From NCBI GenBank assembly GCA_963767925.1, contig CAVYGB010000004.1, positions 1 through 64,000 of the forward strand: a stretch of DNA of 64,000 nt, in the 5' to 3' direction. The position numbers and the translations under genes are program-made. The stretch comes from an uncultured delta proteobacterium. GTDB taxonomy: Bacteria > Myxococcota_A > Polyangia > Fen-1088. This document shows positions 7,855 through 45,315 of this stretch, one piece after another. Each line of letters starts with the position of its first letter. The stretch's first letter is position 1. The notes under the pieces are model-generated. The model was not told the DNA's origin. It ran no database searches and saw only the letters and a program-made list of their open reading frames with translations.

Positions 7855-7863
7855 TTTCTGACC

Positions 7864-21903: not shown

Positions 21904-22262
21904 CGTCCGCCCGCCCGGCTGCGAGCGCCCCCGCCCCCGCCGCCACCGCTCCAGCCGCCACCGCCGCCGCCGCCGCTCCGGCCGCCACCACCACCGCCAC
22001 CACCCCCGCCGGCGGACCGCTCCAGGGCCTCCTTGACCGCCAGGGGTCGGCCGCCGAGCTCGCGCCCGTTGAGGGCGTTGATGGCCTGCGCTGCGGCACC
22101 GTCGTCTCCCATCTCGACGAAGGCGAAGCCACGTGGGCGCCCGGACTCACGGTCCAGCATGACCTTGACCTCGGCGACTTCGCCGGCTTCGCTGAAGAGC
22201 TCCCGCAGCTCCAGCTCGGTCACGCTCCAGGCCACGTTGCCCACGAACAACCTCTTTGCCAT
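21897..22262 (-). CDS. RRM-domain RNA-binding protein with Gly-rich tail
   Basis: RNP2 LFVGNV, RNP1 RGFAFVEM; tail ends GGRW; RBS AGGAG. Confidence 0.95.
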
Positions 22263-25021: not shown

Positions 25022-25044
25022 GGGCAGCTTATACCACGGGGTCT

Positions 25045-26328: not shown

Positions 26329-26339
26329 GGTGTATCTCC

Positions 26340-27731: not shown

Positions 27732-27739
27732 GGGGTCGA

Positions 27740-28729
27740 TCAGAAGTTCACGACACGCTCGATCGCGTCGAGGATGCGGTCGGCGTCGGGCAGGTAATCA
27801 TGCTCGAGGGTGTAGGGAAAGGGGGTGTCGAAGCCGGTGACCCGCAAGATGGGCGCCTCGAGGTGCAACATGGCCCGCTCCTGGATGCTGGCGGCGATCT
27901 CCGCCCCGAAGCCGCAGGTGCGGGGCGCCTCGTGGGCCACCACCGCCCGTCCGGTCTTCTGCACCGAGGTGATGATGGCCTCGATGTCGAAGGGCATCAG
28001 CGTGCGCAGGTCGATGAGCTCGATGTCGTAGCCCTGGCTGGTCCCCTTCTCCACCGCCTCGAGCGCGGTGTGGACCATGGCGCTCCAGGCGATCAGGGTG
28101 ACCGAGCGGGGACCCCGCCCGGCCGCCTCGCGCAGCACCTTGGCCTCGCCGAGCGGCAGGGTGTATTCGCCGGTGGGGACGTCGGCCTTGGAGGCGCGGT
28201 AGACCCGCTTGGGCTCCATGAAGATGACCGGGTCCTCGCCGCGGATCGACGAGGCGAGCAGGCCCTTGGCGTCGATCGGGTTGGAGGGGGCCACAACCTT
28301 GAGGCCGGGGGTGTGGATGAAGAGGGCCTCGGGCGACTGGGAGTGGTAGTGGCCGCCCCGGATGCCGCCGCCCACCGGCGTGCGGATGACGACCGGGGCC
28401 GGATACTCCCCGCCCGAGCGGTAGCGCAGCTTGGCCAGCTCGCTCACGATCTGATCGAAGGCCGGGAAGATGAAGTCGGCGAACTGGATCTCGGCCACCG
28501 GCTTCAAGCCGTAGAGGGCCATGCCGATGGCGCTGCCGACGATGCCCGCCTCGGCCAGGGGGGTGTCGAAGCAGCGGTCGGCGCCGAACTCCTCCTGCAG
28601 ACCGGTGGTGGCCCGGAAGACGCCGCCGAAGCGGCCCACGTCTTCGCCCAGCACCACGACCCGGGAGTCCCGGCGCATCTCCAGTCGCAGGCAGTCGTTG
28701 ACGGCCTGAATGATGTTCAATTCCGGCAT
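27740..28729 (-). CDS. 2-oxoacid dehydrogenase E1 beta
   Basis: GEDVG..GGVFRAT, DTPLAE, EIQFADF, HSQSPE. Confidence 0.95.
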   Translation of the reverse strand: MPELNIIQAVNDCLRLEMRRDSRVVVLGEDVGRFGGVFRATTGLQEEFGADRCFDTPLAEAGIVGSAIGMALYGLKPVAEIQFADFIFPAFDQIVSELAKLRYRSGGEYPAPVVIRTPVGGGIRGGHYHSQSPEALFIHTPGLKVVAPSNPIDAKGLLASSIRGEDPVIFMEPKRVYRASKADVPTGEYTLPLGEAKVLREAAGRGPRSVTLIAWSAMVHTALEAVEKGTSQGYDIELIDLRTLMPFDIEAIITSVQKTGRAVVAHEAPRTCGFGAEIAASIQERAMLHLEAPILRVTGFDTPFPYTLEHDYLPDADRILDAIERVVNF

Positions 28730-28874
28730 GGGGTGCTCGGGCCTCGGCGGCCTCCGGTGAGGGGGTTAGCTTGCACGGGATCGCTCCGGCTGGAAAGGGG
28801 TGCCCGAAGGCGGTCGAGGTGGTTGCAGGTCGGTGGCCCGGTCGGGTGGACCTCGACGACACGGGCGGGCGCGA

Positions 28875-29291: not shown

Positions 29292-29903
29292 TCAGGGCCG
29301 GGGTGCGGGCGCGGGGGCGGCAGGGGGCGGCGGATACTGGGGATAGCTTGCCGGCGCGACCGGCGGCGCGCCCTGACCCTGGTAGGGCGCCGGGGCGGGA
29401 GCCGGGTAGGGCTGCTGCGGATACGGTTGCGCAGGGTAGGGTTGCGGGGGGTAAGGCTGCTGGGGGTAGGGCTGCTGCGGCGGATAGCCGGGCGGCGGCG
29501 CCTGCGGAGGCCCGTAGGGCTGGGCGGGCGGGGCGAAGGCGGCGGGAGTCGGGCCTGCGGCGCCGGGGCCGGTGCACTGATAGTGGAGGCGCCACTCGGT
29601 CATGTTGGTGGTCTTGCTGCCACCATCTTTCACCACGGTGCCCTGCTTGGTCTTGCGGATCTCGTCGGACTCCTGGGTCTGCGAGCCGACCACGGTCTCG
29701 CCCTCCTGGAAGATCGTGTACGCGCCCGGCCCACAGTGGGACGCCATGTTGACGTGGGCGTTTTGCATGGCCTTTTGCCGGTCGAAGCCGACCAGGGCGA
29801 GCACACCGCCGTACTGGTTGCGCTCGACCAGCCGGGACGTGCCGCATGCGCCGGCGCCGAGCACGCCGAGCAGGAGGAGGCACAGGGGGTTTGGTCGTGG
29901 CAT
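29292..29903 (-). CDS. Hypothetical lipoprotein with Pro/Gln/Tyr-rich C-terminal tail
   Basis: Lipobox GAGAC; tandem QQPYP-type repeats. Confidence 0.7.
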   Translation of the reverse strand: MPRPNPLCLLLLGVLGAGACGTSRLVERNQYGGVLALVGFDRQKAMQNAHVNMASHCGPGAYTIFQEGETVVGSQTQESDEIRKTKQGTVVKDGGSKTTNMTEWRLHYQCTGPGAAGPTPAAFAPPAQPYGPPQAPPPGYPPQQPYPQQPYPPQPYPAQPYPQQPYPAPAPAPYQGQGAPPVAPASYPQYPPPPAAPAPAPRP

Positions 29904-30086
29904 CGGCAAGCCTTTCGTGAAGGGAGGCGGGTGGCGGAGGCGGGAAGGTGAACGCGGGGACATTAGCCCGGGTCTCCCGGACGCGGCAATATGTCTCGTC
30001 CCGGGCCGCCCCGGCACCTGGCTGCGCTGTGCGCCCGGCTGCACGGCGCGCCGGCCCCCCGCGGAGGGGGGCCCAGACCCCGGTGA

Positions 30087-31991
30087 TCAGGGAGACGGAG
30101 CGACGGGGCGGAGGCGGAGGGTGAAGGAGAGGGGGCGGCCCGGTTGCAGCGTGACCTCCTTGCTGGTCGCGAGTCGGACCAGCAGGGGGATGCCGCCGCG
30201 GGCGCCGCGGCCGAGGGGGCCGTTGCCGGTCGCCTCGAGCGAGACGGCGAGGGGGACGCTCGCCCGATCCAGGGACACCTCGAGCACGCCGTCGGGACCC
30301 TCGAAGCGGTCGATGCGCCGGCCGCCCTGCAGGCGGGTGGTCACCTGGCCGCCGGTGCTGGGGACGAACAGGCGCAGGGCGCGCAGGGGGGTGGGGCGGG
30401 CGGCCTGGATGGTCTCGCTGCGCACGAGGGCGTCCCCCTCCACCGTCCAGCGGACCTCGCTGATCAGCCCGGCGTCGATCGGGCGCGCCGGCTCGCCCCC
30501 GACCAGGGCGTGGCGCCGCCACACGGCGCGCAGGCGGCGGCCTCCGGGGTCGGGGTGGATCTCGTCGGCGCCGTCGCTGGCCACCAGCACGCGCCCGTCG
30601 CCGAGCTCGAGGTGTGGCACCAGGGCGGGGGCGAGCTGCTCGACCGGGACTGCGAATCCGGGCAGGGCGTGGGGGGCGGCCAGGTAGTCGGCGATGCCGC
30701 CGCGCGGACCGGTTGTGAAGGGCAGGGCGAAGCGCAGGGCGCCCTGCCGGTAGAGCCACACCCCGGCGGGCCGGGCGCCGCGCCGGAACCACTCGAAGCG
30801 GGCCACCGCCGGCAAGGTCGGCTGCGCGGGGAAGGTCGTCACCTTCTCGGTGCGCAGCGCTGCCGCGAGCAGCCCGAGCGAGTGGGCCGCCTTGCCGAGG
30901 TAAGAGGTGGTCTGCTGCCACTGGCGGGCAGGGGTCATGTAGTTGTAATTGCCCCGGCCGAAGCCGAACATGTCGAGCAGGTGGCGGTCGCGCTGGTAGT
31001 CCTTCTGCAGCCAGGTCCAGGCCGCCTGGTACAGCGCCGCGAGCTGGGCCAGGGGGGCCGGGCGGAACTGGGGGTGGCGGGCTAGAAAGGCCACGATCTC
31101 CAGGCTGTCCATGTAGCTGATGGCGCCGATGGTGCGGCCCCAGGGGTAGCCGCAGCCGTCGGGCGAGGCCAGATCCCACCAGGTGCGGAACACCGCCCGC
31201 AAGCTGGGCTCGACGGCCTTCTGGATGTCCTGGCGCCCGAGGATCTGCGCCGCCTCGTACACGAACCGGGCGTACTCCTGCGAGTAGCGGTCGTAGCGGC
31301 CGGTGGGCAGCGAGTCGTCGGTGTAGAGCTCACCGCGCAGGAACTGGCCGGCCGCCCGCTCGAGCAGGTCGTCGACGAAGGCCCGCTCGGTGATGAGGCC
31401 CATCTCGTGGTCGAGGGCGACGATGCGGGCGGCCACCCCGAAGTAGTTCTCGGGCAGGTTGATCACCTGGCGCTTCTCGCGGTCGTAAAAGCGCCCCGGG
31501 TCGAGCAGCGATCGCCAGGCGGTCTGCTCGGCGGGGGCGAGGCTCTGCCAGAGGGCGTTCTTGCTCAGATCGGCCCCGAACCGGCGCAGCGACAGGGCGG
31601 CCCCGAGCTGGGCGAAGGTCTTGCCGCCGAGGCGCGCCTCGATCAGCCCGAGCTTGCCGAGCAGGCGGGCGACGTCCTGGCCGGCCAGGGTGCGCTGGTT
31701 CGACAGGGCGCTGACGTCGGTGATGGCCCGCATGAACGAGCCCCAGGTGAAGTCGCCGCCGGTCGGCACGCCGAGCACGGTGGGCTGGGGTGGGTCGAGG
31801 GTCTTGACCGCCTGGATGTGGGCCGCGATCTCCCCCTCGAGAAAGCGGGTCGACTCGGTCACGAAGCGCTCGGCCGGGATCTCCGCCGCGCGGGCTGTCC
31901 CGCCGGCGAGCAGCGACGACAGCGCCAGCGCGACGGGCAGCAGGCGGGCGAGCTTTTTCGGCGCGGGGGCCAGGCCGCGGTTCGTTGTCAT
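30087..31991 (-). CDS. Secreted hypothetical protein (634 aa)
   Basis: Signal peptide ending ARA; long ORF with natural, aromatic-rich composition; no family recognised. Confidence 0.7.
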   Translation of the reverse strand: MTTNRGLAPAPKKLARLLPVALALSSLLAGGTARAAEIPAERFVTESTRFLEGEIAAHIQAVKTLDPPQPTVLGVPTGGDFTWGSFMRAITDVSALSNQRTLAGQDVARLLGKLGLIEARLGGKTFAQLGAALSLRRFGADLSKNALWQSLAPAEQTAWRSLLDPGRFYDREKRQVINLPENYFGVAARIVALDHEMGLITERAFVDDLLERAAGQFLRGELYTDDSLPTGRYDRYSQEYARFVYEAAQILGRQDIQKAVEPSLRAVFRTWWDLASPDGCGYPWGRTIGAISYMDSLEIVAFLARHPQFRPAPLAQLAALYQAAWTWLQKDYQRDRHLLDMFGFGRGNYNYMTPARQWQQTTSYLGKAAHSLGLLAAALRTEKVTTFPAQPTLPAVARFEWFRRGARPAGVWLYRQGALRFALPFTTGPRGGIADYLAAPHALPGFAVPVEQLAPALVPHLELGDGRVLVASDGADEIHPDPGGRRLRAVWRRHALVGGEPARPIDAGLISEVRWTVEGDALVRSETIQAARPTPLRALRLFVPSTGGQVTTRLQGGRRIDRFEGPDGVLEVSLDRASVPLAVSLEATGNGPLGRGARGGIPLLVRLATSKEVTLQPGRPLSFTLRLRPVAPSP

Positions 31992-32019: not shown

Positions 32020-32607
32020 ATGCCCCGCCTTTTCGTCGCCCTCGACCTGGCTCCCTCGCCCCGCGCGGCGCTCGCCGCCCTGTGCGCGGGGATCCCTGCT
32101 GCGCGCTGGGTGCCGCCCGAGCAGCTCCACGTCACCTTGCGCTTCCTCGGCCAGGTCGCCGACGATCGGGTGGCCGGCTTGCAGGCGGCGCTCGCCGGGG
32201 TGGGGGCGGCCGGCTTTCAGGTGGAGGTGCGCGGCGTGGGCCTGTTTCCGCCCGCTCCCACGCGGCGCAAGCCGGCGCGCGTCCTGTGGGCGGGCCTCGA
32301 CCCGACCGCGCCGGTCGCCGCGCTGAAGGTCGCGGTCGACGCCGCCCTCGCGCCGGTGGTGGGGCCCGATCCCGAGGCGGCGGAGCGCGCGTTTTCGCCG
32401 CACGTGACGCTGGCCCGCTTCAAGGATCCGCCCGAGCCGACCGCGCTGGCCGACTTTCTCGCCCGGCACCGCGCCCTGGCGAGCGCGGCCTTCGCCGTCG
32501 CGGCGTTCACTCTGTACCAGAGCCGCACTTCGCCCGCGGGCTCGGTCTACACCGCTCTGGCGCGCTACCCGCTGGCCGGTGCGAGCGGGGCAGGCGGGCG
32601 CGGATGA
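32020..32607 (+). CDS. thpR: RNA 2',3'-cyclic phosphodiesterase (2H phosphoesterase)
   Basis: RLFVAL start; two HxT motifs (HVTLRFLG, PHVTLAR); ARVLWAG. Confidence 0.92.
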   Translation: MPRLFVALDLAPSPRAALAALCAGIPAARWVPPEQLHVTLRFLGQVADDRVAGLQAALAGVGAAGFQVEVRGVGLFPPAPTRRKPARVLWAGLDPTAPVAALKVAVDAALAPVVGPDPEAAERAFSPHVTLARFKDPPEPTALADFLARHRALASAAFAVAAFTLYQSRTSPAGSVYTALARYPLAGASGAGGRG

Positions 32608-33148
32608 GCTGGCGGGCGCGCAGCAGGCGGGTGCCGACGGTGCCGAGGGGGATGCCCAGGCGCGCGCTGATCTGCTGGTAGGGCAGCTTCTCGATGGCCC
32701 ACAGCCAGAAGGTCTCGCCGAGGGCGGGGGGCAGCTCGCCGGCGATCTGGCGCAGGTCGCGCCGGTCGAGATCGGGCGGGGCCGGCTCCTCGTCGCCGGG
32801 GGGCGGCACCGCGGCGGGGCCGAGGGCGGCGTAGGCCTCGTGCAGGTCGCGTCGGCGGCGGTGGCGGCGGGTCTCGTCCACCGCCAGCCGGTAGAGCACG
32901 GTGCGCATCCAGGCGGTGGCGCTGCCCCCGGAGGGGAAGCGCTCGCAGGCGGTCATCGCCCGCAGCGCCGCCTCCTGCAGGAGGTCGTCGGCGCCGGCCT
33001 GGTCGCGCGACCAGCGCCGGGCCACCGCCCGCAAGGCGGTCATCGCCTCGGCCACCTCGGCCCCTCTCCCCTTCTCTGCCCGCGGCGCGAGCCGCATCGA
33101 ACATGCGTTGGACATGACACCACTCCCGCTTGCCGGTCCTGATTCCAC
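32507..33148 (-). CDS. ECF sigma factor 2 (start uncertain; 3' end overlaps thpR convergently)
   Basis: Region 2 ADDLLQEAALRA...AWMRTVLYRLAVD; region 4 LPYQQISARLGIPLGTVGTRLLRAR. Confidence 0.85.
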   Translation of the reverse strand: MESGPASGSGVMSNACSMRLAPRAEKGRGAEVAEAMTALRAVARRWSRDQAGADDLLQEAALRAMTACERFPSGGSATAWMRTVLYRLAVDETRRHRRRRDLHEAYAALGPAAVPPPGDEEPAPPDLDRRDLRQIAGELPPALGETFWLWAIEKLPYQQISARLGIPLGTVGTRLLRARQLIRARLPRSHRPAGSAPERCRPSPRAKCGSGTE

Positions 33149-33161
33149 GACGGCGTTACGG

Positions 33162-33196
33162 GGAGGAGGTGCGCGGGAGCGGTCGACCGTTACAGC
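33162..33196 (-). promoter_or_regulatory. Putative ECF promoter GCTGTAACG-N16-CACCTCCTCC upstream of ECF sigma 2
   Basis: Both boxes and the spacing are identical to the site at 37388-37422. Confidence 0.7.
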
Positions 33197-33212
33197 GAAA
33201 TCGACAGGCCCG

Positions 33213-35765
33213 TCACAGCGAGCTGCGCAGGCGCGGCTCGCCGGTGGCGCCGGGGCCGAGGTAGGCCTGGAAGGCGGCCCAGTGGTAGGGCGTGCGCCAG
33301 GGGCCGGTCGATCGCAGCAGGCCGAGCTGGGCGGTGCGCAGGGCGACGGCGGGGTCGGCGCCGCGGGCGATCTCGGCGTACATGTGGTCCATCAGCGCGG
33401 CGGTCGAGGGGTCGGCCACGTCCCACAGGCCGGCCACCACCTGGCGGGCGCCCGCGCTGAGAAAACCCCAGGCGAAGCCGACCAGCCCCTCGCCCGAATA
33501 GGCCCGGGCCCCCGCGCCCCGGCAGGCCGAGACGGTGACCAGGTCGGCGGCCAGCGGGACGCGGAGCACGTCGCGCACCGAGAGGCGGTGGCCGCTGACT
33601 CCCCGGGACAGCACGATGGTCGAGTCGAGCGGGCTGGCCGGGTTGGCCACCGCGTGGGCGGCGAAGTGCACGATGGAGAAGCGGTGGGGATCGCTCTCCC
33701 GGTAGGCCTCGGGGCGGGCCTGGCTGCCGGCGAGGGTGGTGACCGCGGCGGCGCCGAAGTGCTGGCGGAGGGCGGCGAGCTCGCGGCCGGCGTGGGGCAG
33801 GCGGGGAAACTCCGGGCCCGAAGCCTCGGGATCGCCGATGGCCAGCAGGCTGGGGGCGCCGGCGGGGCGGGCGCTGGCCTGGGCGCCGCTGTCTTGGTCG
33901 CCGCTGTGGCCGGCGATGGCGGTCAGCGAGGGGGCCAGCAGCAGGCTCACCTCCTCGATCCAGAAGCGGGGCGGGTCGCCCGGGACAACGAGGGCGCCGA
34001 AGGGGACGGCGTGCAGGGGGCCGTCGGCGGCGATCACGACCTTCGATCCGGGCGGAACCTGCGCGGCCAGCGGGCGCACCACGAGATCGTAGAGGGCCTG
34101 GGCGGGGGAGCGGGCGAGGGTGCGGGGGTCGCGCAGGCTCTGCTCGATGAAGGTGCGGTAGGCCTCGACGGCGCGGGTCAGCTCCCGCTCGGGCGGCAGG
34201 TGGTGCAGGTGCGCGCCGCGGGGGTCGACCACCCAGGCGTAGGAGCGTTCGGGCCCCACCCAGTAGGAGATGAAGACCTCGCCCCGGCGGCGGGAGCGCA
34301 GCCGGGGCTCGGCGGCGCCGGGGCGGGCCGGACGGTCGGGCTTGCCCAGCCGCTCGGACAGGACGCGGGCCCGCGCCAGCTCCACCGCGGCGAGGGCCTC
34401 GTCGATGCGGCCGCGCTGGATCAACCACTCGACGTGGGCCCGGTGCAGGCCGATCAGGCGGTGCAGGAAGGTGAGCCGGTGCTCGACGCCGCCGAGGTCG
34501 GCGCGCGCCTCCTCGATGTCGGCCAGCGCCTGGCCGAAGGCGCGTTCGGCCTCGGCGTGACGGCCCTGGGCGGCATAGATCCCGGCCAGCTCGGCCCGGG
34601 CCACCCAGCGGATGCCCTTGCGGTCGGCCACCTGGGCCAGCAGATGGAGGAACAGGCGCTCGGCCCGGGCCAGATCGCCCCGGCCGCGAGCGATGGCCGC
34701 GTCGTTGAGCGCGACGTAGTGGAGCTGATCGGCCCGGCCGTCTTGCCGCCAGAGCTGGCCGGCCTCGCCGTTGAAGCGGCTGGCCGCCTCCCAGCTCTCG
34801 AGGGCCACGTGGGCCGAGGCGAGGTTGCTGGCCCAGCGGGCGGCAGCGCGGGGCTCGTGTTGCCGGGCCAGGGCCAGCGCCCGCTCGAAGTGGGCGGCGG
34901 CCTGCTGCCAGTCGCCGGCGAGGTAGTAGCTGTTGCCCAGCGATCCCAGGGTGTCGGGCAGGCTGGCGTGAAGGGGCAGCCGCTGCTGGATGGCGGCGGC
35001 CTCCTCCAGCAGGCGGCGCGAGCGCTCGAAGTCGCCCAGGCGGTAGTGGCAGATGCCGGCGTTGAGCAGGGCGCGCGCGGTGAGGGCCTCGGCCCCCAGG
35101 CGGCGCGCGTCGGCCAGCGCGGGCTCGAGGAAGGTGAGGGCCTCCACCCAGCGCTCGCGCTTGAGGGCGAGAAAGCCGAGGGTGATCAGCGCGGCCGCCC
35201 GCCAGCGGGCGCCCTCGGGGGCTGCCGTCTCCATGTCGATGACCGCCCGGCTGCGGGCCTCGGCCTCGGGGTAGCGCCCCTGCTCGGCCAGCAGGGTGGC
35301 CTGGCGGTAGGTGATCTCGATGGGCAGGGCGGGGGCGGTGGCGGCCCGGGCCAGCCGGGCGGCGCTCTGGTAGCGGCGGTCGGCCTCGGCCCGATCGCGC
35401 AGGCGGGCGGCGGTCTGCCCCAGGACCTTCTCTCGCCGGGCCTCCAGCTCCCCGCCGGTCAGCGGGGCGGGCAGCGGCTCGGCCAGGGCCTGGCGGGCGG
35501 CCGGGGCCTGGCCCAGCTCGACGAGGACCTCGGCCTCCAGCAGGCGCAGGCGCCAGCCGCGGGCGTCGAGGGGGTCGACCTGCTTGCGGTCGAGGGCCTG
35601 GCGCACGTGGGCCCGGGCGGCGACAACGCGGCCGCTCTGAGCCAGCGCCTCGGCCTCGACGTATGCCTTGTCGAGGTCGACCCCGCCGCAGGCGGCGGTC
35701 AGGGCGGCGGCGAGCGCCAGCAGCACGTGGGCGGAGAGCGCCCCGATCGGGCTGCGGGGCCGCAT
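33213..35765 (-). CDS. TPR-CHAT (caspase-like, clan CD) protease, possible lipoprotein
   Basis: Hydrophobic N-terminus ending LTAAC; multiple TPR-like helices; CHAT motifs ADGPLHAVPF.AL, IVHFAAH (His), LVTVSAC (Cys), GLWDV.D, WAAF. Confidence 0.9.
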   Translation of the reverse strand: MRPRSPIGALSAHVLLALAAALTAACGGVDLDKAYVEAEALAQSGRVVAARAHVRQALDRKQVDPLDARGWRLRLLEAEVLVELGQAPAARQALAEPLPAPLTGGELEARREKVLGQTAARLRDRAEADRRYQSAARLARAATAPALPIEITYRQATLLAEQGRYPEAEARSRAVIDMETAAPEGARWRAAALITLGFLALKRERWVEALTFLEPALADARRLGAEALTARALLNAGICHYRLGDFERSRRLLEEAAAIQQRLPLHASLPDTLGSLGNSYYLAGDWQQAAAHFERALALARQHEPRAAARWASNLASAHVALESWEAASRFNGEAGQLWRQDGRADQLHYVALNDAAIARGRGDLARAERLFLHLLAQVADRKGIRWVARAELAGIYAAQGRHAEAERAFGQALADIEEARADLGGVEHRLTFLHRLIGLHRAHVEWLIQRGRIDEALAAVELARARVLSERLGKPDRPARPGAAEPRLRSRRRGEVFISYWVGPERSYAWVVDPRGAHLHHLPPERELTRAVEAYRTFIEQSLRDPRTLARSPAQALYDLVVRPLAAQVPPGSKVVIAADGPLHAVPFGALVVPGDPPRFWIEEVSLLLAPSLTAIAGHSGDQDSGAQASARPAGAPSLLAIGDPEASGPEFPRLPHAGRELAALRQHFGAAAVTTLAGSQARPEAYRESDPHRFSIVHFAAHAVANPASPLDSTIVLSRGVSGHRLSVRDVLRVPLAADLVTVSACRGAGARAYSGEGLVGFAWGFLSAGARQVVAGLWDVADPSTAALMDHMYAEIARGADPAVALRTAQLGLLRSTGPWRTPYHWAAFQAYLGPGATGEPRLRSSL

Positions 35766-35769
35766 CGTT

Positions 35770-36636
35770 TCAGACTCCGTCTGAGCCGCCGAACACTGGC
35801 TGTCCGTTGTCGTCGACGTCGCCCATCACGGCGCTGCCGTCGGCGGGGCAGCCGAGCTGGATCCGGATCAGCGTCAGGCGGCGCGAGTCGGGATCGATCA
35901 GCATCTCGCCGAAGTAGACCTGACCGATCTCCGGGAGGTACGCCCCGTTGGAGCGCCGCTTGCCGCCGCGCTGCTCGACGATGGTGTGGCCGCCCCACTT
36001 CAGGCTTCTGACGATGTGCAGGGCGATCCGCTTGCCGGCCGCGGCGGAGTCGCCCTTCTGCAGGCGGGAGTGGGGCAGGAGGTACGACTCTCCCTCGCCG
36101 CTGTTCACGAAGTCGACGACCTGCTCGTAGGTGTCGTCCTTGCGGAACAGGTCGGGCGCGAGCTCGAGCTCGAGCGGCTCGTCCTGGAAGGCCACGCCCT
36201 CGAGCACCGGGCGCGCGAGGGTGAAGCGTTCGGGGGCGCTGGGGGTGGTGCGCGAGGCGAGGGAGGTGATCTCGGCCGAGCACTGCTGGATCGAGAGCTT
36301 CTCGAACAGCCCGAGGTAGACGTCGGCCGTGCTGGCGGCGGCGCGGGTGGTGACCTGCTCGTCGGCGAGGCGGAGGCTCACCTCGGCCCGGGCCCAGGCG
36401 CAGGAGGCGAGGGACTGGCCCCGGTACATCGTGTTGAGCCGGGTGCGGGTCGTGGAGGCGCGGCCTCCGTTGAGGGGCAGCGAGCAGGAGACCCCATCGA
36501 GGGGGACGTTCACGGGCAGGTGGGCGTCGCGGCCGGGGCGATCGGCCACCCGGTCGACGTGGCCGGCGAGGGCGACGGCGCTGGCGTGGCCGAGGTACGG
36601 CGGCGAGGCGTACTGCCGGGGATTCTTCTTGCTCAC
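35770..36636 (-). CDS. Hypothetical protein (288 aa) between anti-sigma and CHAT protease
   Basis: Co-oriented; 4-bp gap to CHAT; protein-like composition; no signal peptide. Confidence 0.8.
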   Translation of the reverse strand: MSKKNPRQYASPPYLGHASAVALAGHVDRVADRPGRDAHLPVNVPLDGVSCSLPLNGGRASTTRTRLNTMYRGQSLASCAWARAEVSLRLADEQVTTRAAASTADVYLGLFEKLSIQQCSAEITSLASRTTPSAPERFTLARPVLEGVAFQDEPLELELAPDLFRKDDTYEQVVDFVNSGEGESYLLPHSRLQKGDSAAAGKRIALHIVRSLKWGGHTIVEQRGGKRRSNGAYLPEIGQVYFGEMLIDPDSRRLTLIRIQLGCPADGSAVMGDVDDNGQPVFGGSDGV

Positions 36637-36669
36637 GGGGCACCCCTTCGTTCAGGTCGGGGTTCGCGC

Positions 36670-37377
36670 TCAGGGTCGGGTGAGCGCGAACGGGTAGGCC
36701 ACTTGCTCGAACGTCCGACCGGTGGTTTGTTCCATCGTCGGGACGGAAATCACGAGGTGGTACCGACCCGGGGCCAGCCTCGCGACAGGGAGCTGGATCA
36801 GGAGCGGCTCGCCCGCGCCGGGCGGCGCGAGGTCGAAGGGCGCGAGCACCGCGTGACCCGCGCCATCGCGCAGCTCGCCCCGAAGGGTCGACGCGTCCGG
36901 CTGGTCGGGCGGCAGCTCGAGGGCCAGGGTCAGCGTGCGGTCGTGAGGGCCGAGGGCGATGAGACGGCCCTCGCCGCGGGTGAGCGGGCGCAGGACGAAG
37001 GGGGAGACGGTGCGCGGCGACTCCAGGCCGGCGATCTCCTGGCGCAGCTCGGGGATCACCCCGAAGCGCTGGTGGGCGGCGAGCGCGATGAGGGGCAGCG
37101 CGGCCAGCGCGGCCGCGCGCACCGCGAAGCCGCGCAGGCTGGCGGGCAACCTGCGTCGCCGCGCCGGCGCCGCGACGCTCGGACCGGGGGCGGGGCGTCC
37201 GGCTCCAGCGAGGATCGCGCGCGCGCCGTCGACGAAGGCCGACGCGGCGAGCACGTCCTCGGCGCAGGTGGGGCACTCGAAGTAGTGGACCTCGAAGTCA
37301 GCGCGCTCGGCCTCGGTCAGCTCGCCGAGGACGTAACGCTCGGCCAGCGCGGGGTGGGCGGCGGGGTCGTGCGACAT
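36670..37377 (-). CDS. zf-HC2 anti-sigma factor with transmembrane helix and extracytoplasmic domain
   Basis: YVLGEL...FEVHYFECPTC (HxxxCxxC); TM AAALAALPLIALAA; ATG 37377 preferred because the promoter motif overlaps ATG 37413. Confidence 0.88.
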   Translation of the reverse strand: MSHDPAAHPALAERYVLGELTEAERADFEVHYFECPTCAEDVLAASAFVDGARAILAGAGRPAPGPSVAAPARRRRLPASLRGFAVRAAALAALPLIALAAHQRFGVIPELRQEIAGLESPRTVSPFVLRPLTRGEGRLIALGPHDRTLTLALELPPDQPDASTLRGELRDGAGHAVLAPFDLAPPGAGEPLLIQLPVARLAPGRYHLVISVPTMEQTTGRTFEQVAYPFALTRP

Positions 37378-37387
37378 GGGTGCCGCT

Positions 37388-37422
37388 GGAGGAGGTGTTC
37401 CGTCACCCGGCATCGTTACAGC
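37388..37422 (-). promoter_or_regulatory. Putative ECF promoter GCTGTAACG-N16-CACCTCCTCC upstream of the anti-sigma
   Basis: Identical boxes and spacing to 33162-33196; -35 contains the AAC typical of ECF promoters. Confidence 0.7.
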
Positions 37423-37507
37423 CCTCGCATAAAATGGCGCCGGGCACCGGGGGTCACCCGGTTGCCCGCGGTCGGATTCGCACCCATCGCGCTTCCATCC
37501 AGCTCCC

Positions 37508-38089
37508 TCACCGCGGCTCCTCGACCTGAGCGCCGCCGGCCAGCAGCTTGCCGAAGCGGCGCCGGGCCCGGTGCAGCAGCACCCGCAGATGATCGCGGGT
37601 GACGCCGAAGCGCCGGCAGACGGCGTCCTTGTCCGAGTCGAGCAGCAGCACCAGCTCGAGGATCTCCCGGTCGCGGGCGGGCAGGGCGTCGAGCACCACC
37701 CGGGCGGCCTCCAGCGACCGGCGGGCGCCGGCCCGGGCCTCGGGGTCGTCGGGGGAGCGCTGCTCGAGGCGGGCCGCCTCGACCGGTTGCAGGCGGGCGG
37801 CGCTGCGGGTGGTCTCGCGCAGCACGTTTTCGCACACCCCGATCACGAAGGCGCTGAAGCGGTCGCTCTCACGCAGGCTGCCAGAGCGGACGGCCGTCAG
37901 GACGCGGGTGAAGGTCTCCTGCACGACGTCCCGCACGCGATCCTCGGGGAAGCTGCGCCGGCGGGTGCGCACCAGGGCGCTCAGCAGTCGGCCGTAGTGC
38001 TCGCCGAAGTGGCGTTCGGTGGCGGCGTCACGTTCGGCCAGGCGTTGCAGGTAGTCGCCGCCGCTGTTGCTGTTGGCCTCCGGGGTCAC
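37508..38089 (-). CDS. ECF sigma factor 1
   Basis: RDVVQETFTRV...AFVIGVCENVLRE; region 4 LPARDREIL...HLRVLLHRARRRF. Confidence 0.9.
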   Translation of the reverse strand: MTPEANSNSGGDYLQRLAERDAATERHFGEHYGRLLSALVRTRRRSFPEDRVRDVVQETFTRVLTAVRSGSLRESDRFSAFVIGVCENVLRETTRSAARLQPVEAARLEQRSPDDPEARAGARRSLEAARVVLDALPARDREILELVLLLDSDKDAVCRRFGVTRDHLRVLLHRARRRFGKLLAGGAQVEEPR

Positions 38090-38100
38090 CGAGCGGCGGC

Positions 38101-38129
38101 ATCATCCGGGGGCGCGGCGCACCTGTCAA
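38101..38129 (-). promoter_or_regulatory. Putative housekeeping promoter of ECF sigma 1 (TTGACA-N17-GATGAT)
   Basis: Perfect -35, 17-nt spacer, -10 ends 11 nt before the GTG start, so the mRNA would be nearly leaderless. Confidence 0.55.
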
Positions 38130-38183
38130 TCGACGGTGGGCCTCGGTCTGGCGGCGGGGCGGCGGGGCGCCGGGCGGGCGCCG

Positions 38184-38220
38184 AAAAAAGCAAAACCCCC
38201 GCGGCTTGCGACCGCGAGGG
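38184..38220 (-). terminator. Intrinsic terminator of pilA
   Basis: Minus strand ccctcgcgg-tcgcaag-ccgcggggg followed by ttttgctttttt. Confidence 0.8.
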
Positions 38221-38253
38221 CTAGCTGCTCACCCGGTGGTGAGCGTCGCTCGA

Positions 38254-38793
38254 TTACTCGAGCTCGTTGGTGACCGTCGGGGCGGTGCCGCCGGTGACGT
38301 CGCCGCTGGTGGCGTTGATGAAGCCCAGGCGGACGAAGGTCGAGCGGGTGTCGTCGCAGTCGAGGTCGCCGGTGGCGCCCGCGGTGAAGTCCGAGGCCGA
38401 GTTCGTGCCGGTCGAGATGTAGGTAGGGTAGTAGTTGTACGGATCGGGCAGAGAGAAGTTCAGGGCGATGAAGCCGGCGTGGTTGTAGCGGGCGTCGTTG
38501 CCGGCGCACTTGGCGGCGGCGCCGGTGCAGCAGTCCGTGGTGCCCTCTACCACGCCGTCCGCGGTCGGGAACTGGCGAGCGGTCGTGCCGGCGCCCTGGT
38601 CACCTTCGTAGTAGGCGACCGATCCCTGCCACAGCTTGTTCAGGTGGCCGGCGGCCTCCGCCGTACGGGACTTCTTCACGTAGCGTGAGAAGGCCGGGAT
38701 GGCGATGGCGGCCAGGATGCCGATGATGGCGACGACAATCATCAACTCGACGAGCGTGAAACCTGCGTTCTTCTTGCGTGCTTGTTTGGTCAT
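38254..38793 (-). CDS. pilA: Type IVa major pilin
   Basis: Class III signal [33 protein letters not shown] motif. Confidence 0.92.
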
Positions 38794-38846
38794 TTTGTCC
38801 GTTCCCCCTTGATTCGGGGGCTCTTCGTCCCCCTGACCCGGAGAGT

Positions 38847-38862
38847 TGCAGCGGATGTGCCA
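38847..38862 (-). promoter_or_regulatory. Sigma54 -24/-12 promoter of pilA
   Basis: TGGCAC-ATCCG-CTGCA, i.e. GG-N10-GC. Confidence 0.8.
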
Positions 38863-38956
38863 GGTCGAGCGGGCCGCAGCGACGGTGCCCCGACGGCCAC
38901 CTCCGCCGCGGCGGTGCTCTTTGCGCTGCCGGCCGGCTCCACGGCCCGGCCGAGAA

Positions 38957-38974
38957 TTGTCATTTCCACGACAA
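38957..38974. promoter_or_regulatory. Putative enhancer-binding-protein (PilR-type) site
   Basis: Palindrome TTGTC-N8-GACAA ~100 bp upstream of the sigma54 promoter. Confidence 0.5.
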
Positions 38975-39157
38975 CTTTTGGGTCGGGCGAGCTTCTTTCC
39001 GTCAGGACATGCTCCGTCTGAGGGGGAACCTGGGCGGCGCGGGCCCCTTCCCTCCCCGGTGTGGCCGCTGCGCCGGCGGGGGCCTACATCGCGTCCGGCG
39101 ATTGCTCGGGCGCCGACATTGTCAGGGTGGGGCAGCACCTGAGATATTGGAGGGGCG

Positions 39158-40828
39158 ATGGCTGAACGGATCTGGGTCAAGCGTTATCCCAAGGGCGTGT
39201 CGGCGGAGATCGACCCCGACAAGTACCGGTCCATCGTCCAGGTGTTCCGGGAAGCGTGCGACCGCTTCGCCAAGCGGCCCTGTTACACGAACCTGGGGGT
39301 GACGCTCACCTTCGCCGAGGTCGACGAGCTGAGCGCCGCGTTCGCCGCGTTCCTCAGCAAAGACCTGGGGCTGGTCAAGGGGGATCGCATCGGCCTGCAG
39401 ATGCCCAACCTCCTGCAGTATCCAGTGGCGCTGTTCGGGGCGCTGCGCGCGGGGCTGGTGGTGGTCAACACGAACCCGCTCTACACCCCGCGGGAGATGG
39501 AGCACCAGTACCGCGACTCCGGGGTCAAGGCGATCGTCATCCTGGCCAACTTCGCCCGCAACCTGCAGGAGGTGCTGCCGGGCCTGCGCCAGTCTGCGGG
39601 CGTGCAGCACGTGATCGTCACCCAGGTGGGAGACCTGTTCCCGGCTGCCAAGCGGATGCTGGTCAACGCCGCGGTCCGCTACATCAAGAAGATGGTCCCG
39701 GCCTACGACCTGCCGGGCGCGATCGACTTCCGCGACGCGCTGGCGCGCGGGCGGCGGCAGGGCGCCCAGCCCGACGTGGAGACCAGTGGGCAGGACGTCG
39801 CCTTCTTGCAATACACCGGCGGCACCACCGGCGTGTCCAAGGGGGCCATCCTCACCCACCGCAACGTCATCGCCAACATGGAGCAGTCGTCGGCCTGGAT
39901 GATCCCCCGCCTCAACCTGGGCGAGGAGGTCATCGTCACGCCGCTGCCGCTCTATCACATCTTCTCGCTGACCGTGAACTGCCTGCTGTTCCTGAAGATC
40001 GGCGCGGAGAACGTGCTCATCACCAACCCCCGGGACTACAAGGCGTTCATCGCCCTGCTGCGCAGCCAGCCCTTCACCGTGATGACAGTGGTGAGCACGC
40101 TGCTCAACGCGCTGATGAACCACCCCGACTTCGCCGGGATCGACCTGAGCCGGGCCAAGCTGATCGTGGCCGGGGCCATGGCCCTGCAGAAGCCGGTGGC
40201 CGAGCGCTGGCGCGAGCTGACCCGCACGACGGTGATCGAGGGCTACGGCTTGACCGAGGCCTCTCCGGTGCTGTGCTGCAACCCGGTCGACGGCAGCGAT
40301 CGCCTGGGGACCATCGGGCTGCCCTTCCCCTCGACCGACATCAAGCTGATGGGCGACGACGGGGTCGAGGCGCCGACCGGCCAGCCGGGCGAGCTCTGCG
40401 CGCGCGGCCCCCAGGTCATGCAGGGCTACTGGAACCGCCCCGAGGAGACCGCCCAGGTGCTGCGCGACGGCTGGCTGTGGACCGGCGACGTCGCCGTGAT
40501 GGAGCCCGACGGCTTCATGCGGATCGTCGACCGCAAGAAGGACATGATCCTCGTCTCGGGCTTCAACGTCTACCCCACCGAGGTGGAGGAGGTGGTGGCC
40601 CAGCACCCCAAGGTCGCCGAGTCCGGCGTCATCGGCGTGCCCGACGAGAAGTCCGGGGAGGCGGTCAAGGTGGTGGTCGTCCGCAAGCAGGACGACCTCA
40701 CCGCCGAGGAGCTGATCGCGTTCTGTCGCACGCGCCTGGCGGCCTACAAGGTCCCCCGCCACGTCGAGTTCCGCACCGAGCTGCCGAAGACCAACGTCGG
40801 CAAGGTCCTCCGCCGCGCTTTGCGCTAG
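39158..40828 (+). CDS. fadD: Long-chain fatty acid-CoA ligase
   Basis: [51 protein letters not shown]. Confidence 0.93.
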
Positions 40829-41114
40829 TAGACGTTCCCGAAAGTAGACGGGTTCGCTCGCTGCGGTCGGGCCCGGCTTGCGTGCCGATCACTTGCCGGC
40901 GGTACCCCGCCTCGAACAGTCCCCCCGTCCCCGTCCTCCCGGCGACCGGCGTGCATCTGGCCCCCTCCCACAACTCGGGATCTCTCGAAGCCCCGACCGC
41001 CCCCCCTCGCCTACATCCGCCGCTCGCCGAACACCCTGACGACGTTGCACCCTCGCTTGAATCAGGGGTTCGGCCTCCCGGCCCCCCGGCGCGCCGGGCT
41101 GTTAAAATGCACGC

Positions 41115-42599
41115 GTGGCGGGCGTGACCGGGCTCCTCGATCGGGTTCGTAGCTCGCCTCGCTTCCGGATCTTTGGTGCCTACGTCGTTGCCACCGGCCT
41201 CCAGCGGGTCTCCGGCGTGATCTTGATTCCGATCGCGACCCGGTACATCTCGCCGGTCGAATACGGAATCCTGGCGACCAGCCAGGCCGTCGCCAGTCTC
41301 TTCTTTCTCCTGTGTTTCATGAGCCTGCAGGACCCGCTGTACCTGGAGGCCGTCAAGCATCGGGACAGCGTCGATCGCTTTGCCGCCACGGCCGTCACGT
41401 TACAGCTCCTCCTGCTTGGAACGAGCGTGGCCCTCGCCCTGGCGGTCGGGGCTTTCGTTGGCTCCGAAGCGTTCTTCGGGGTCCCTTTCATGCCGAACCA
41501 GTTCACGGCCCTGCTGGGGACTCTCGTCGGCATCTTTCCGCTGACCTACTTGCAGTTCCTGCAGGCTCGTGACCGGGTCCGGGAGTTCGTGCTCCTCAGC
41601 CTCGGCATGTCCGTGTTGCCCATCGCCCTGACGATCCTGTTCCTGACCGTCTACCGGATGCAGTCGATGGGCTTTCTTCTCGCGACGCTGGCCGGGAATG
41701 CATTGGCGGCCGTGTACGTGATCGCGGTGCTCCTTCGTCCCTGCGGTCTGATCCTCGACCGCACCCTGGCGATACAGATGCTTCGGACCTCGATTCCCCT
41801 GGTGCCGCACAACCTCGCGTACTGGATCCGGACCGCGGTGAACCGATTGCTCCTGGCCAAATACATGGGAACCGCGGAGGCCGGCCTCTTCCATGTCGCC
41901 AACCAGCTCGCCAGCGTTCTGCTCCTGGGTATCGAACCGTTTCGGAGCGCGAACAATCCACGCTTCTTCCGGCTCGTCGGCATGGGAGCCGACCCACAAC
42001 GAATTACCGGAATCTTGCCGGTTTCCCTCGGGGTGTTCGCCTTGCTAGGGCTTGGGCTGAGCCTGTGGGCCAGGGAGGCCTTTCTGCTGGTGGCAGGGGC
42101 CAACTTCCAGGCGGCGCACGTTCTCATTCCCTTCCATTGCACCGCCTTCCTCCTGGTTCTCTTCTACTACAACCTCGTGAACGTCCTTTATCTGCACAAG
42201 CGAGGCTGGCTGCTCTCGATCTCCTCGATCTCGGCCGGCGCCCTCTCGATCCTCGCGAGCTTCTTGCTGGTGAAGACGATGGGCCTCTGGGGGGCTTGCG
42301 TGGCGTTCGTGGTGGCCAATGGCGTCACGACGGGGGCCATCCTGGTCAGCAGCCAGCGCACCCAACCGTTGCCGTGGGCGGTCGGCAAGAGCTTCATCCT
42401 CACCCTCCTCCCGCTGTCCACCTATGCGGTGGAGCGCGGCACGACCCTCGCTCCTTTCGCGATCAGAGGTCTGTTCTTCCTGGGAGGTGTTCTGACCGTG
42501 GCGATCCTTGTGGCGAGGGAGCTGCGGCAGCAACTCTCTCCACCCGTGCCGGTTGCTGAACCTCCTCCGCCCAGCGGGAACGACCCTTCCTCCAGATGA
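41115..42599 (+). CDS. Polysaccharide flippase (Wzx/MOP family)
   Basis: Multi-TM; LIPIATRYISPVEYG; .R.LL.KY.G..EAGLF..A motif. Confidence 0.8.
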   Translation: MAGVTGLLDRVRSSPRFRIFGAYVVATGLQRVSGVILIPIATRYISPVEYGILATSQAVASLFFLLCFMSLQDPLYLEAVKHRDSVDRFAATAVTLQLLLLGTSVALALAVGAFVGSEAFFGVPFMPNQFTALLGTLVGIFPLTYLQFLQARDRVREFVLLSLGMSVLPIALTILFLTVYRMQSMGFLLATLAGNALAAVYVIAVLLRPCGLILDRTLAIQMLRTSIPLVPHNLAYWIRTAVNRLLLAKYMGTAEAGLFHVANQLASVLLLGIEPFRSANNPRFFRLVGMGADPQRITGILPVSLGVFALLGLGLSLWAREAFLLVAGANFQAAHVLIPFHCTAFLLVLFYYNLVNVLYLHKRGWLLSISSISAGALSILASFLLVKTMGLWGACVAFVVANGVTTGAILVSSQRTQPLPWAVGKSFILTLLPLSTYAVERGTTLAPFAIRGLFFLGGVLTVAILVARELRQQLSPPVPVAEPPPPSGNDPSSR

Positions 42600-44601: not shown

Positions 44602-45305
44602 TGAACGGGCGCCTCACCTCGGAGGGCCAGGTCGACGGCGTACCGGGCCAGCTCCGCGCTGGAATCCACCATCGGGAGGAGGGTGTCGAGCTGAGGCAAA
44701 CATGCGAACTCGGTGCAGGCCAGGAGCACCGCCTGGGCGCCCTTGTCGCGCGCCGCCTGCGCGCAGACTTCGGTCATGGTATGGACCGCCGCGCTGGTAA
44801 CCTCGCCCAGCTTGAGGCTCTCGATCACCCGTTCGACCTCACGCTGGACGTCGGCGCCATGATCGACGAGGGCCTTCCCCTGCGCTTCCAGGGCAGCGGC
44901 GTACGTCCGACGTGAATACGTGACGTGTCCACCGAAGACAGCGACCCTGCTGGCTTCGGGAGATCTTTGGGCGAGGGCCGCCGCCGCGATGTCACGGATG
45001 TCGAGCAGCCGGACGCGAAGCTGCGGCTGGATCTCCGGTAGGAAGATGACCGCGCTGTTGCAGGGCACAGCGATGAAGTCCACCGGGTACGCCTCCAGCT
45101 TGCGACAGCTCTCGAGCATGGCCGGAGCAGGAGAGGCCTCGCCGAACAGGACGTGCCGGGTACGGCTCGGGATGTGAGGGTTGTCGTCGATGATGATCCG
45201 GACATGCTCCCAGTCCTTCCTGGCGGGCGTTGCCTGCAAGAGGCTGCGGAAGAAGGCCAGGGTCGCATACGGGCCCATGCCGCCGAGGACGCCGATCGTC
45301 CGCAT
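44598..45305 (-). CDS. Asp/Glu-family PLP-independent amino acid racemase
   Basis: IGVLGGMGPYAT; catalytic Cys pair PCNSA and LACTE. Confidence 0.9.
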   Translation of the reverse strand: MRTIGVLGGMGPYATLAFFRSLLQATPARKDWEHVRIIIDDNPHIPSRTRHVLFGEASPAPAMLESCRKLEAYPVDFIAVPCNSAVIFLPEIQPQLRVRLLDIRDIAAAALAQRSPEASRVAVFGGHVTYSRRTYAAALEAQGKALVDHGADVQREVERVIESLKLGEVTSAAVHTMTEVCAQAARDKGAQAVLLACTEFACLPQLDTLLPMVDSSAELARYAVDLALRGEAPVQ

Positions 45306-45315
45306 CGGTCGCCTG

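Follow-up and report, generated by a model that had tools for sequence, protein, structure and literature searches.

We analyzed a stretch of 64,000 nucleotides (nt) from an uncultured delta proteobacterium (Myxococcota_A, Polyangia, Fen-1088; assembly GCA_963767925.1, contig CAVYGB010000004.1, positions 1 to 64,000), here called the window. On its minus strand, positions 32507-38089 hold five head-to-tail open reading frames (ORFs) that encode a sigma factor of the extracytoplasmic function (ECF) type (sigma1), a zf-HC2 (ZAS) anti-sigma factor, a protein of 288 amino acids (aa) that by sequence similarity is a divergent member of DUF8256 (PF26784), a TPR-CHAT protein, and a second ECF sigma factor (sigma2). 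A preliminary description of the same DNA had proposed five co-oriented genes of these kinds, and both their orientation and the domain calls, made with local Pfam and NCBIfam libraries, were borne out. This cassette has the appearance of a split, as yet unstudied relative of the DdvA/DdvS switch of Myxococcus. In Myxococcus xanthus, the anti-sigma factor DdvA is fused to a periplasmic TPR-CHAT region and has DdvS as its partner sigma factor (PMC11506125; PDB 8ROT and 8RW5). We tentatively favor the reading, plausible if just short of probable, that the cassette is a self-contained ECF signaling unit and a split form of this switch, with sigma2 as its output. This reading builds on the gene content, the conserved gene order, the lipoprotein-type N-terminus of the TPR-CHAT protein, its conserved His-Cys dyad, and the copies and positions of a promoter-like motif.

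DdvA/DdvS is the only studied case of an anti-sigma factor with a caspase-like domain, and its protease activity and signal are still unproven, in part because a single chain is both enzyme and substrate. With the parts split, the protease, its substrate and one additional partner would each have a gene of their own, and the target promoters are recognizable in the DNA, so that clean tests become possible. Moreover, the cassette gives the DUF8256 family a defined genetic context.

Conservation of gene order

Loci for comparison came from a pattern scan in which each species was represented by one genome; it gave 22 confirmed DUF8256 loci, and 129 neighboring ORFs were searched with Pfam. Many of these loci are from related metagenome-assembled genomes (MAGs) and are not independent, and some genes are frameshifted (L004 and L009). 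All but one of the 22 are labeled Acidobacteriota; the remaining one (L011) is a contig of a Myxococcales MAG, the same contig as L003 of a second genome, G012. A search for conserved synteny had been proposed in the preliminary description. A TPR or TPR-CHAT gene directly follows DUF8256 in 21/22 loci, 18 of them with a CHAT match; the gene is cut by the contig end in L005, L013 and L018, and an outer membrane barrel gene takes its place in L023. Directly upstream of DUF8256, an HxxxCxxC ORF is present in 19/22 loci (not in L004, L005 and L023), and 17 of these 19 ORFs have a hydrophobic segment at the threshold used (not those of L008 and L009). Sigma factor Pfam matches at 1e-4 were obtained for 11 ORFs upstream of the anti-sigma gene, and a sigma/anti-sigma pair lies upstream of DUF8256 in 19 of the 22 public loci.

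All five genes are found in the same order in G012, a second genome of the same family, whose fifth gene product is 43% identical to sigma2. This locus (L011) is the only one among the 22 with a sigma gene directly after CHAT. A single-protein search detected DUF8256 in 1 of 40 relatives from the window's phylum, namely, G012, and a DUF8256 profile gave no match in 400 further genomes of that phylum. The sigma2-bearing variant is rare, occurring in 2 of the 441 genomes sampled from the phylum. A metagenome scan with a two-sequence alignment of myxobacterial DUF8256 proteins gave 187 pattern matches, none of which was confirmed. What is new in the window is the myxobacterial lineage, a conserved fifth gene (sigma2) with a separate motif copy ahead of it, and a layout in which sigma1 itself does not lie behind the motif.

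The TPR-CHAT protein

The 850-aa TPR-CHAT protein matched CHAT with an E value of 1.5e-56 and TPR_12 with an E value of 1.4e-31. The catalytic-type His (IVHFAAH) and Cys (VSAC) motifs had been described as intact, and indeed both are present; H700 and H704 are invariant in 17/17 orthologues and C748 is kept in 16/17, the exception (L004) being frameshifted. In that locus the CHAT gene (7812-9998) is frameshifted before the dyad, and in L009 (8217-10365) it is split into a TPR piece and a CHAT piece; either decay or an assembly error could have produced these broken genes.

The N-terminus of the protein (MRPRSPIGALSAHVLLALAAALTAAC) consists of a short charged head and a hydrophobic stretch followed by a Cys (Cys26). 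A short hydrophobic stretch ending in Cys was found in all 21 readable orthologous N-termini, and a start codon could be placed 13 to 26 residues before this Cys in 19 of them. We infer that the N-terminus is a lipoprotein signal. With such an N-terminus, the protein is probably periplasmic, unlike the cytoplasmic Csx29.

A profile of the CHAT domain searched against the PDB matched DdvA (8ROT) best (E value of 4.4e-4) and aligned both the His and the Cys region; separase (0.02) and Csx29 (0.027) came next. A whole-protein profile was swamped by TPR matches in the PDB, and a single-sequence search with the CHAT domain returned nothing below an E value of 0.6. The AlphaFold2 model of the domain had a predicted local distance difference test score (pLDDT) of 75. 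Using Foldseek, this model matched Csx29 (8EEY) with an E value of 1e-9, a query TM-score (TMq) of 0.56, 329 columns and 16% identity, and it matched DdvA (8ROT) with an E value of 1.5e-9, a TMq of 0.46, 217 columns and 22% identity; separase, SAVED-CHAT, gingipain and caspases came next. For DdvA, 217 of 310 columns were aligned, versus 301 to 331 for Csx29. DdvA lacks three helices that are present in other CHAT domains (PMC11506125). The shorter overlap fits this loss, and the window's CHAT domain may have kept parts that DdvA lacks.

The closeness to Csx29 bears on the analogy drawn in the preliminary description, which took the cassette for a CRISPR-independent counterpart of Csx29/Csx30. 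Craspase of type III-E CRISPR (PMC10028731) comprises Csx29 (a TPR-CHAT protein), Csx30 and CASP-sigma; an ECF sigma factor is part of both systems, and in both a TPR-CHAT protease would free an ECF-type sigma response. By Foldseek, Csx29 and DdvA are equally close to the CHAT fold of the window. In contrast, Craspase is described as cytoplasmic, RNA guided and Cas7-11 bound, whereas the protease of the window is predicted to be exported, with the lipoprotein-type N-terminus recurring in 21/21 orthologues. The match to the curated NCBIfam Csx29 model (NF041237) had an E value of 0.088 and 11.6 bits, far below the cut-off of 300. Csx29 acts in the cytoplasm with Cas7-11 and Csx30; the neighbors here are a sigma factor, an ordinary membrane ZAS anti-sigma factor that does not resemble Csx30, and DUF8256. 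The analogy could thus not be upheld, and we regard a cytoplasmic, CRISPR-independent analogue of Csx29/Csx30/CASP-sigma as highly improbable.

The anti-sigma factor and its predicted pairing with CHAT

The anti-sigma ORF (36670-37413) matched zf-HC2 at 1.8e-5 and has an HxxxCxxC motif and one hydrophobic helix. H43, C47 and C50 are invariant in 19/19 orthologues. Since the Met at position 13 is likewise invariant in 19/19 orthologues, the start is most likely M13 (ATG 37377). The predicted topology comprises a cytoplasmic HxxxCxxC part, one transmembrane (TM) helix and about 130 aa that form a periplasmic domain. The ZAS part matched 3HUG_B with an E value of 3.5e-4. In the juxtamembrane periplasmic stretch, P121, P138, L141, R146 and G147 (numbering of the 247-aa ORF) are invariant within an otherwise variable region. 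This motif (residues 121-147; window 36976-37053) is a candidate recognition/docking or cleavage site. The genome encodes M50 site-2 proteases, which are present in nearly all bacteria.

Structure prediction of CHAT with the C-terminal domain of the anti-sigma factor had been suggested in the preliminary description. We therefore predicted the complex of mature TPR-CHAT (residues 27-850) with the periplasmic domain (117-247) using custom alignments. The median complex score was 0.33 (runs of 0.23, 0.33 and 0.36), compared to 0.00 for the best of three controls; the pLDDT of the partner was at least 70 and the contacts agreed between runs at a level of at least 91%. The mark for this score is passed by 116/157 solved complexes and by 2/215 mismatched pairs. 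Scores of 0.60 or less with a pass comprise 18 of the 157 solved complexes and both mismatches, and are more often wrong than right unless the pair is likely beforehand. The prediction weakly favors the CHAT/anti-sigma pairing; it gave no interface.

The two ECF sigma factors

Sigma1 matched Sigma70_r2 and r4_2 above the Pfam cut-offs and TIGR02937 with 56 bits; sigma2 matched r2 (2.3e-12) and r4_2 (6.5e-10), likewise above the cut-offs, with TIGR02937 above its cut-off. Both proteins have the ECF (group 4) organization, with regions 2 and 4 as their only sigma regions, a length of about 200 aa, and no r3 match. By sequence comparison, they are not close paralogues. Sigma1 starts at GTG 38089, with an in-frame TGA at 38104-38102. 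The unit had been drawn up to 38129; this base opens a TTGACA box and is not a start codon. For sigma2, the most likely start is ATG 33115, with GGGAG ahead of it. As had been stated before, sigma2 has no anti-sigma gene of its own: none follows it, and a convergent LigT-type gene closes the unit.

A motif at the N-terminus of sigma1 (DYxxRL...ERHF) recurs, as judged by eye, in most of 17 translated upstream sigma ORFs. The sigma1 gene has a housekeeping-type promoter-like site both in the window and in G012, where TTGACT-18-CATGAT is found at the same place, before sigma1. A scan for sigma-70-type promoters returned two sites in 9.5 kb, compared to 0.1 expected in shuffles. In the Solibacter-type cassettes (L006, L010, L012, L014, L015, L018, L020 and L024), the likely GTG start of sigma1 is preceded, at about 10 nt, by a perfect extended -10 box (TGTATAAT), which suggests that their sigma1 mRNAs are nearly leaderless.

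A promoter-like motif before the anti-sigma and sigma2 genes

Two identical 17-position copies of a motif, TGTAACG-N16-CACCTCCTCC, are located on the coding strand of the cassette (Table 1), both just before gene starts, namely, those of the anti-sigma factor and sigma2. The pattern GTAACG-N15-17-CACCT matched twice in the window, compared to 0.02 matches expected, and the strict pattern with the leading T had only these 2 sites in the 9.34-Mb genome, with 0 for the reversed control. G012 has a single strict site in its genome, located before sigma2 as in the window. Its anti-sigma gene has a near-copy (GGTAACG-N16-CAC) 41 nt ahead of it. Genome-wide, the relaxed pattern TGTAACG-N16-CAC gave 3 sites versus 5 for the reversed control, i.e., chance level, so that the weight of the motif comes from its position and from the longer shared sequence only.

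The third genome-wide copy of the relaxed pattern lies on contig 10 (L043, G000:C10:174500-178500) at 3014-3039 on the minus strand, in an AT-richer stretch with a tandem GTAACGATTTC. It is located about 190 nt before an ORF for an ECF sigma factor that is 24% identical to sigma1. This contig-10 sigma factor may also belong to the cascade, or its specificity may be similar.

A looser expression, G[TA]AACN-N15-17-CAC, was scanned on the coding strand of 20 cassettes. Sites no more than 90 nt ahead of the anti-sigma start are found in 7/20 (the window, L011, L013, L016, L017, L022 and L025), sites before sigma1 in L007, L008, L009, L012 and L015, and sites farther upstream (216 to 341 nt) in L010, L018, L019 and L020. 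Just after CHAT, the expression matches in the window, L011, L016 and L022, and sites past the CHAT stop are found in L010 (at 217 nt) and L025 (at 359 nt). No site was found in the cassettes of L006, L021 and L024, and L014 has one only at -493. Over the 22 loci, 37 sites were counted on the cassette strand versus 22 on the other strand, with a background of about one site per 12 kb and strand. Most cassettes with the looser motif are without sigma2.

Sigma1 is the likely reader of TGTAACG-N16-CAC; it is the parsimonious choice because it is the only sigma factor common to all motif-bearing cassettes. Because the motif precedes both the anti-sigma gene and sigma2, and because cassettes without sigma2 are marked as well, a cascade from sigma1 to sigma2 is supported. 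These positions fit the earlier proposal of re-induction of the module and activation of sigma2 by sigma1, since the strict motif is found only before the anti-sigma and sigma2 genes.

Within a single clade of Acidobacteriota, the motif copy after CHAT precedes a CarboxypepD_reg gene in L016 (10008-10748) and a rhodanese gene in L022 (9806-10549), and the site 359 nt past the CHAT stop of L025 (9903-10364) lies beside an ORF with CarboxypepD_reg. The output slot of the cassette seems to be its variable fifth gene.

The same positions also feed the main rival of our reading, in which sigma1 and its anti-sigma factor sense on their own or through another protease, DUF8256, CHAT and sigma2 are mere outputs of the sigma1 regulon, and CHAT, a protease induced for the periplasm, acts on other targets. 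With the motif before the anti-sigma-DUF8256-CHAT genes and before sigma2, all of these would be predicted sigma1 targets; behind CHAT, related clades have the motif ahead of genes of other kinds (rhodanese in L022, CarboxypepD_reg in L016 and L025), and DUF8256-CHAT pairs occur without sigma and anti-sigma genes in 2/22 loci. However, the anti-sigma factor and the CHAT lipoprotein travel together in 19/22 loci, the juxtamembrane periplasmic motif of the anti-sigma factor is invariant, and the one studied relative, DdvA, has anti-sigma factor and TPR-CHAT in one chain. On balance, we hold this output-only arrangement to be rather unlikely.

The DUF8256 protein

The third-position GC content of the 288-aa frame is 0.95, as in real genes of this DNA, and the frame is therefore coding. 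The protein had no match in the local Pfam or NCBIfam copies, the PF26784 model being absent from the local Pfam. A phmmer search returned 12 relatives besides the protein itself (E values of 1.4e-11 to 1.8e-6), 12/12 of which have a precomputed PF26784 assignment, and the nearest clusters in the ESM Atlas were DUF8256 with a score of 0.97. Membership as a divergent DUF8256 protein is thus by similarity to assigned members and not by the curated PF26784 cut-off. A 26-row profile of the family collected 1,560 cluster representatives at an E value of 0.001 or less and 1,057 at 1e-10, out of 1.84 billion. We found neither "DUF8256" nor "PF26784" mentioned in the literature.

The AlphaFold2 model is a confident all-beta structure (pLDDT of 84; predicted TM-score of 0.84) with strands of 13 to 18 residues. 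At an E value of 0.001 or less, Foldseek gave 0 matches for the model in the PDB, and 0 matches were obtained in BFVD (viral structures). In a wide VIA search, the best Z score was 5.6, to part of BtuB, below the meaningful level of the tool, and the family profile matched nothing below an E value of 0.9 among PDB sequences. The invariant residues of the family (P41, G57, G58, L155, V209, G238, F242, E244, I247 and R258) do not, in our reading of the alignment, resemble a catalytic set.

The protein has no hydrophobic window (maximum Kyte-Doolittle value over 19 residues [KD19] of 0.88) and no TM segment. An in-frame stop lies 5 codons ahead of the start of the gene, and in 21/21 full-length members from the loci the N-termini are short and polar, with about 10 residues or fewer ahead of the first conserved strand; the protein is therefore left without room for a signal peptide. 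DUF8256 should thus be cytoplasmic and the protease outside the cytoplasmic membrane. The 288-aa protein had been named as a possible substrate of the protease. Since it has no room for a signal peptide, it is unlikely to be cleaved by an exported enzyme.

The same compartments matter for another explanation, in which DUF8256 serves CHAT as substrate or partner effector (for example, as a pro-toxin or pore former like those of gasdermin-protease pairs) in a defense or cell-death device and the sigma pair is merely regulatory. DUF8256-CHAT is indeed the tightest link of the cassette (21/22 loci, a 4-nt gap here, and 2 loci without sigma genes), and the confident all-beta model has no clear known fold. 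Bacterial gasdermins adjoin caspase-like proteases. However, no gasdermin was among the fold matches listed for DUF8256, although a missing match does not exclude a fold, and the strands, judged by eye from the sequence against the model, are polar and not membrane-like. Moreover, a protein without a possible signal peptide and a protease with an export signal would be expected in different compartments. The defense role that had been raised earlier found no backing from PADLOC either: run on 7 proteins, it matched a generic TPR model only, and no specific model. Such an effector device seems improbable to us.

Proposed mechanism

According to our favored reading, a split DdvA/DdvS-type switch, a housekeeping-type promoter would supply sigma1, which would be kept inactive by the membrane ZAS anti-sigma factor. 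The TPR-CHAT protein would be exported and lipid anchored, with its TPR array sensing a periplasmic or envelope cue. Upon such a signal, the His704-Cys748 site would cleave the periplasmic part of the anti-sigma factor (site-1 cleavage), and an RseP-type protease would complete its breakdown and thus free sigma1. Free sigma1 would read both TGTAACG-N16-CAC promoters and re-induce the anti-sigma factor, DUF8256 and CHAT in a feedback loop. It would also turn on sigma2, which would carry the response further through a presumed regulon of its own. DUF8256 would be a cytoplasmic partner.

A number of points weigh against this reading. In a phmmer search of PDB sequences with sigma1, no 8ROT chain (DdvS) was matched at an E value of 1 or less, and an anti-sigma profile searched against the PDB sequences likewise did not match DdvA at that level. 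The protease activity and the signal of DdvA itself are unproven, and its dyad mutants have no phenotype in unperturbed cells (PMC11506125). The export and lipidation of CHAT are deduced from N-termini read by eye and a hydropathy scan. Because its gene lies behind a sigma1-type promoter, CHAT could be an output and not the trigger. Furthermore, 2/22 loci (L004 and L005) have DUF8256 and CHAT without an adjacent sigma/anti-sigma pair, so that the DUF8256-CHAT pair may have a role of its own, and the favored model leaves the role of DUF8256, the tightest-linked partner, unexplained.

A more elaborate scheme gives DUF8256 a task. In this scheme, a trans-envelope switch of a new kind, the lipid-anchored caspase-like protease would cut the separate anti-sigma factor at its juxtamembrane motif on a signal from the envelope or an invader protein, DUF8256 would gate or relay sigma1, and the myxobacterial version would fire a sigma1-to-sigma2 cascade that possibly includes the contig-10 ECF sigma factor. 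Taken as a whole, this scheme is doubtful; if it is true, DUF8256 would be a new cytoplasmic component whose fold has no solved relative.

Comparison with known systems

For DdvA, the published proposal is site-1 cleavage by the fused CHAT domain, followed by RseP (PMC11506125). In both DdvA/DdvS and the cassette, an ECF sigma factor is held by a single-pass ZAS anti-sigma factor and a TPR-CHAT part with a His-Cys dyad is found, on the periplasmic side as predicted here; moreover, DdvA is the best solved sequence match of the CHAT domain. Of the features of a DdvA-type protein, the ZAS domain with a single TM helix and the His-Cys dyad are thus present in the cassette, whereas the fusion to TPR-CHAT is absent: TPR-CHAT is encoded by a separate lipoprotein-type gene with its own export signal instead of forming the C-terminal domain of the anti-sigma factor, and the DUF8256 gene lies between the two. 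In addition, sigma1 and the anti-sigma factor have no specific sequence match to DdvS and DdvA, the proposed output here is a second sigma factor, and no cyclic-oligonucleotide-based antiphage signaling system (CBASS) or CRISPR genes were seen adjoining the cassette, a statement that covers its neighborhood and not a scan of the whole window for cas genes. The DdvA paper (PMC11506125) was the only literature found on a periplasmic TPR-CHAT protein with a sigma factor, and, judging by the listings of papers on CHAT domains with ECF and anti-sigma factors, no split form is described.

The sigma-E pathway (RseA/DegS/RseP) also relies on a periplasmic site-1 cut of a single-pass anti-sigma factor, followed by an M50 site-2 protease (PMC11506125). 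In contrast to the DegS-type serine protease of that pathway, the candidate site-1 protease here is an operon-encoded, caspase-like CHAT lipoprotein. According to the supplement of PMC7826278, ECF54 of Actinobacteria is regularly encoded near a TPR-CHAT protein; this group, which is 100% actinobacterial, is described as having no anti-sigma factor and has a subtilase and a carboxypeptidase-regulatory-like protein nearby. The unit of the window differs from the context given there, since it includes an anti-sigma factor and no subtilase. DUF8256 is absent from the ECF54 context as described there, and the relatives of the cassette are, by record title, Acidobacteriota or Myxococcales.

Two further CHAT loci were seen in the same genome. 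L039 (G000:C2:1756000-1766000, about 1400-5807, plus strand) holds a second sigma/CHAT module, which lacks DUF8256. Its parts are an ECF sigma factor, a zf-HC2 anti-sigma factor that has SPVL repeats as well as a periplasmic TPR part, and a TM-anchored TPR region. The latter continues in another frame into a CHAT domain, which may reflect a frameshift or two genes. In L038 (G000:C2:626000-636000), a third CHAT protein (4604-7726, minus strand; 1040 aa; CHAT at 6e-28) is divergent from a subtilase-like gene (7748-9748, plus strand; Peptidase_S8 at 7e-8), an arrangement that recalls the CHAT/subtilase neighborhood of the ECF54 type.

Boundaries of the cassette and neighboring genes

The features of the locus are listed in Table 1. 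The gene starts within the five-gene unit are our choices; with the preferred starts, the intergenic gaps are 130, 33, 4 and 97 nt.

Table 1. Features of the five-gene cassette and its flanks (window coordinates)
Feature	Position	Strand	Remarks
Terminator-like hairpin and T-run	38194..38222	-	12-pair stem, 8 GC pairs, then TTGCTTTTTT; 3' of pilin-like gene
Sigma-70-type promoter-like site, TTGACA-17-GATGAT	38101..38129	-	Directly 5' of sigma1; 10/12 matches
sigma1, ECF sigma factor, 193 aa, GTG start	37508..38089	-	Sigma70_r2, r4_2, TIGR02937
Motif copy 1, TGTAACG-N16-CACCTCCTCC	37393..37420	-	About 20 nt 5' of anti-sigma M13
zf-HC2 (ZAS) anti-sigma factor, 235 aa from predicted start M13	36670..37377	-	ORF open up to 37413 (247 aa)
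DUF8256 (PF26784) protein, 288 aa	35770..36636	-	Sequence relatives and all-beta model
TPR-CHAT, 850 aa, Cys26 lipoprotein-type N-terminus	33213..35765	-	His704/Cys748 dyad; 4 nt after DUF8256 stop
Motif copy 2, TGTAACG-N16-CACCTCCTCC	33167..33194	-	Between CHAT stop and sigma2
sigma2, ECF sigma factor, 202 aa from likely ATG 33115	32507..33115	-	ORF open to GTG 33148
LigT/2H-phosphoesterase gene, outside module	32020..32607	+	LigT_PEase 1.7e-24; convergent, downstream boundary

Because a terminator-like hairpin and a promoter-like site of its own lie upstream and the convergent LigT gene lies downstream, the cassette is a single bounded unit of five genes, from which the upstream pilin-like gene is separate. 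That gene had been labeled pilA and linked to the cassette. Its ORF of 177 aa has the N-terminal methylation motif (N_methyl) only, it is cut off by the terminator with a separate promoter following, and it is not a neighbor of the cassette in G012; neither the label nor the link was retained.

The 3' ends of sigma2 and the convergent LigT gene overlap by about 100 nt (window 32507-32607). The cassette is the GC maximum of the window (76%); the GC content is 62 to 68% at 1-12000 and 38000-48000, compared to 70 to 76% in between. An acyl-CoA-ligase-type gene and polysaccharide-synthesis-type genes are found at 39 to 45 kb. On the other side of the cassette, the minus strand encodes a 634-aa protein that has no Pfam match and whose N-terminus resembles a signal peptide (30087-31991) and, beside it, a 250-aa protein with a lipoprotein-like start and C-terminal PQQPYP-type repeats (29292-30044). 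Farther along the same strand (20740-22146), 10 kb from the cassette and after a 2-oxoacid dehydrogenase operon (23606-28765), lies a gene whose 468-aa product, a member of the sigma-70 family of the housekeeping or group-2 type, has regions 1.2, 2, 3 and 4.

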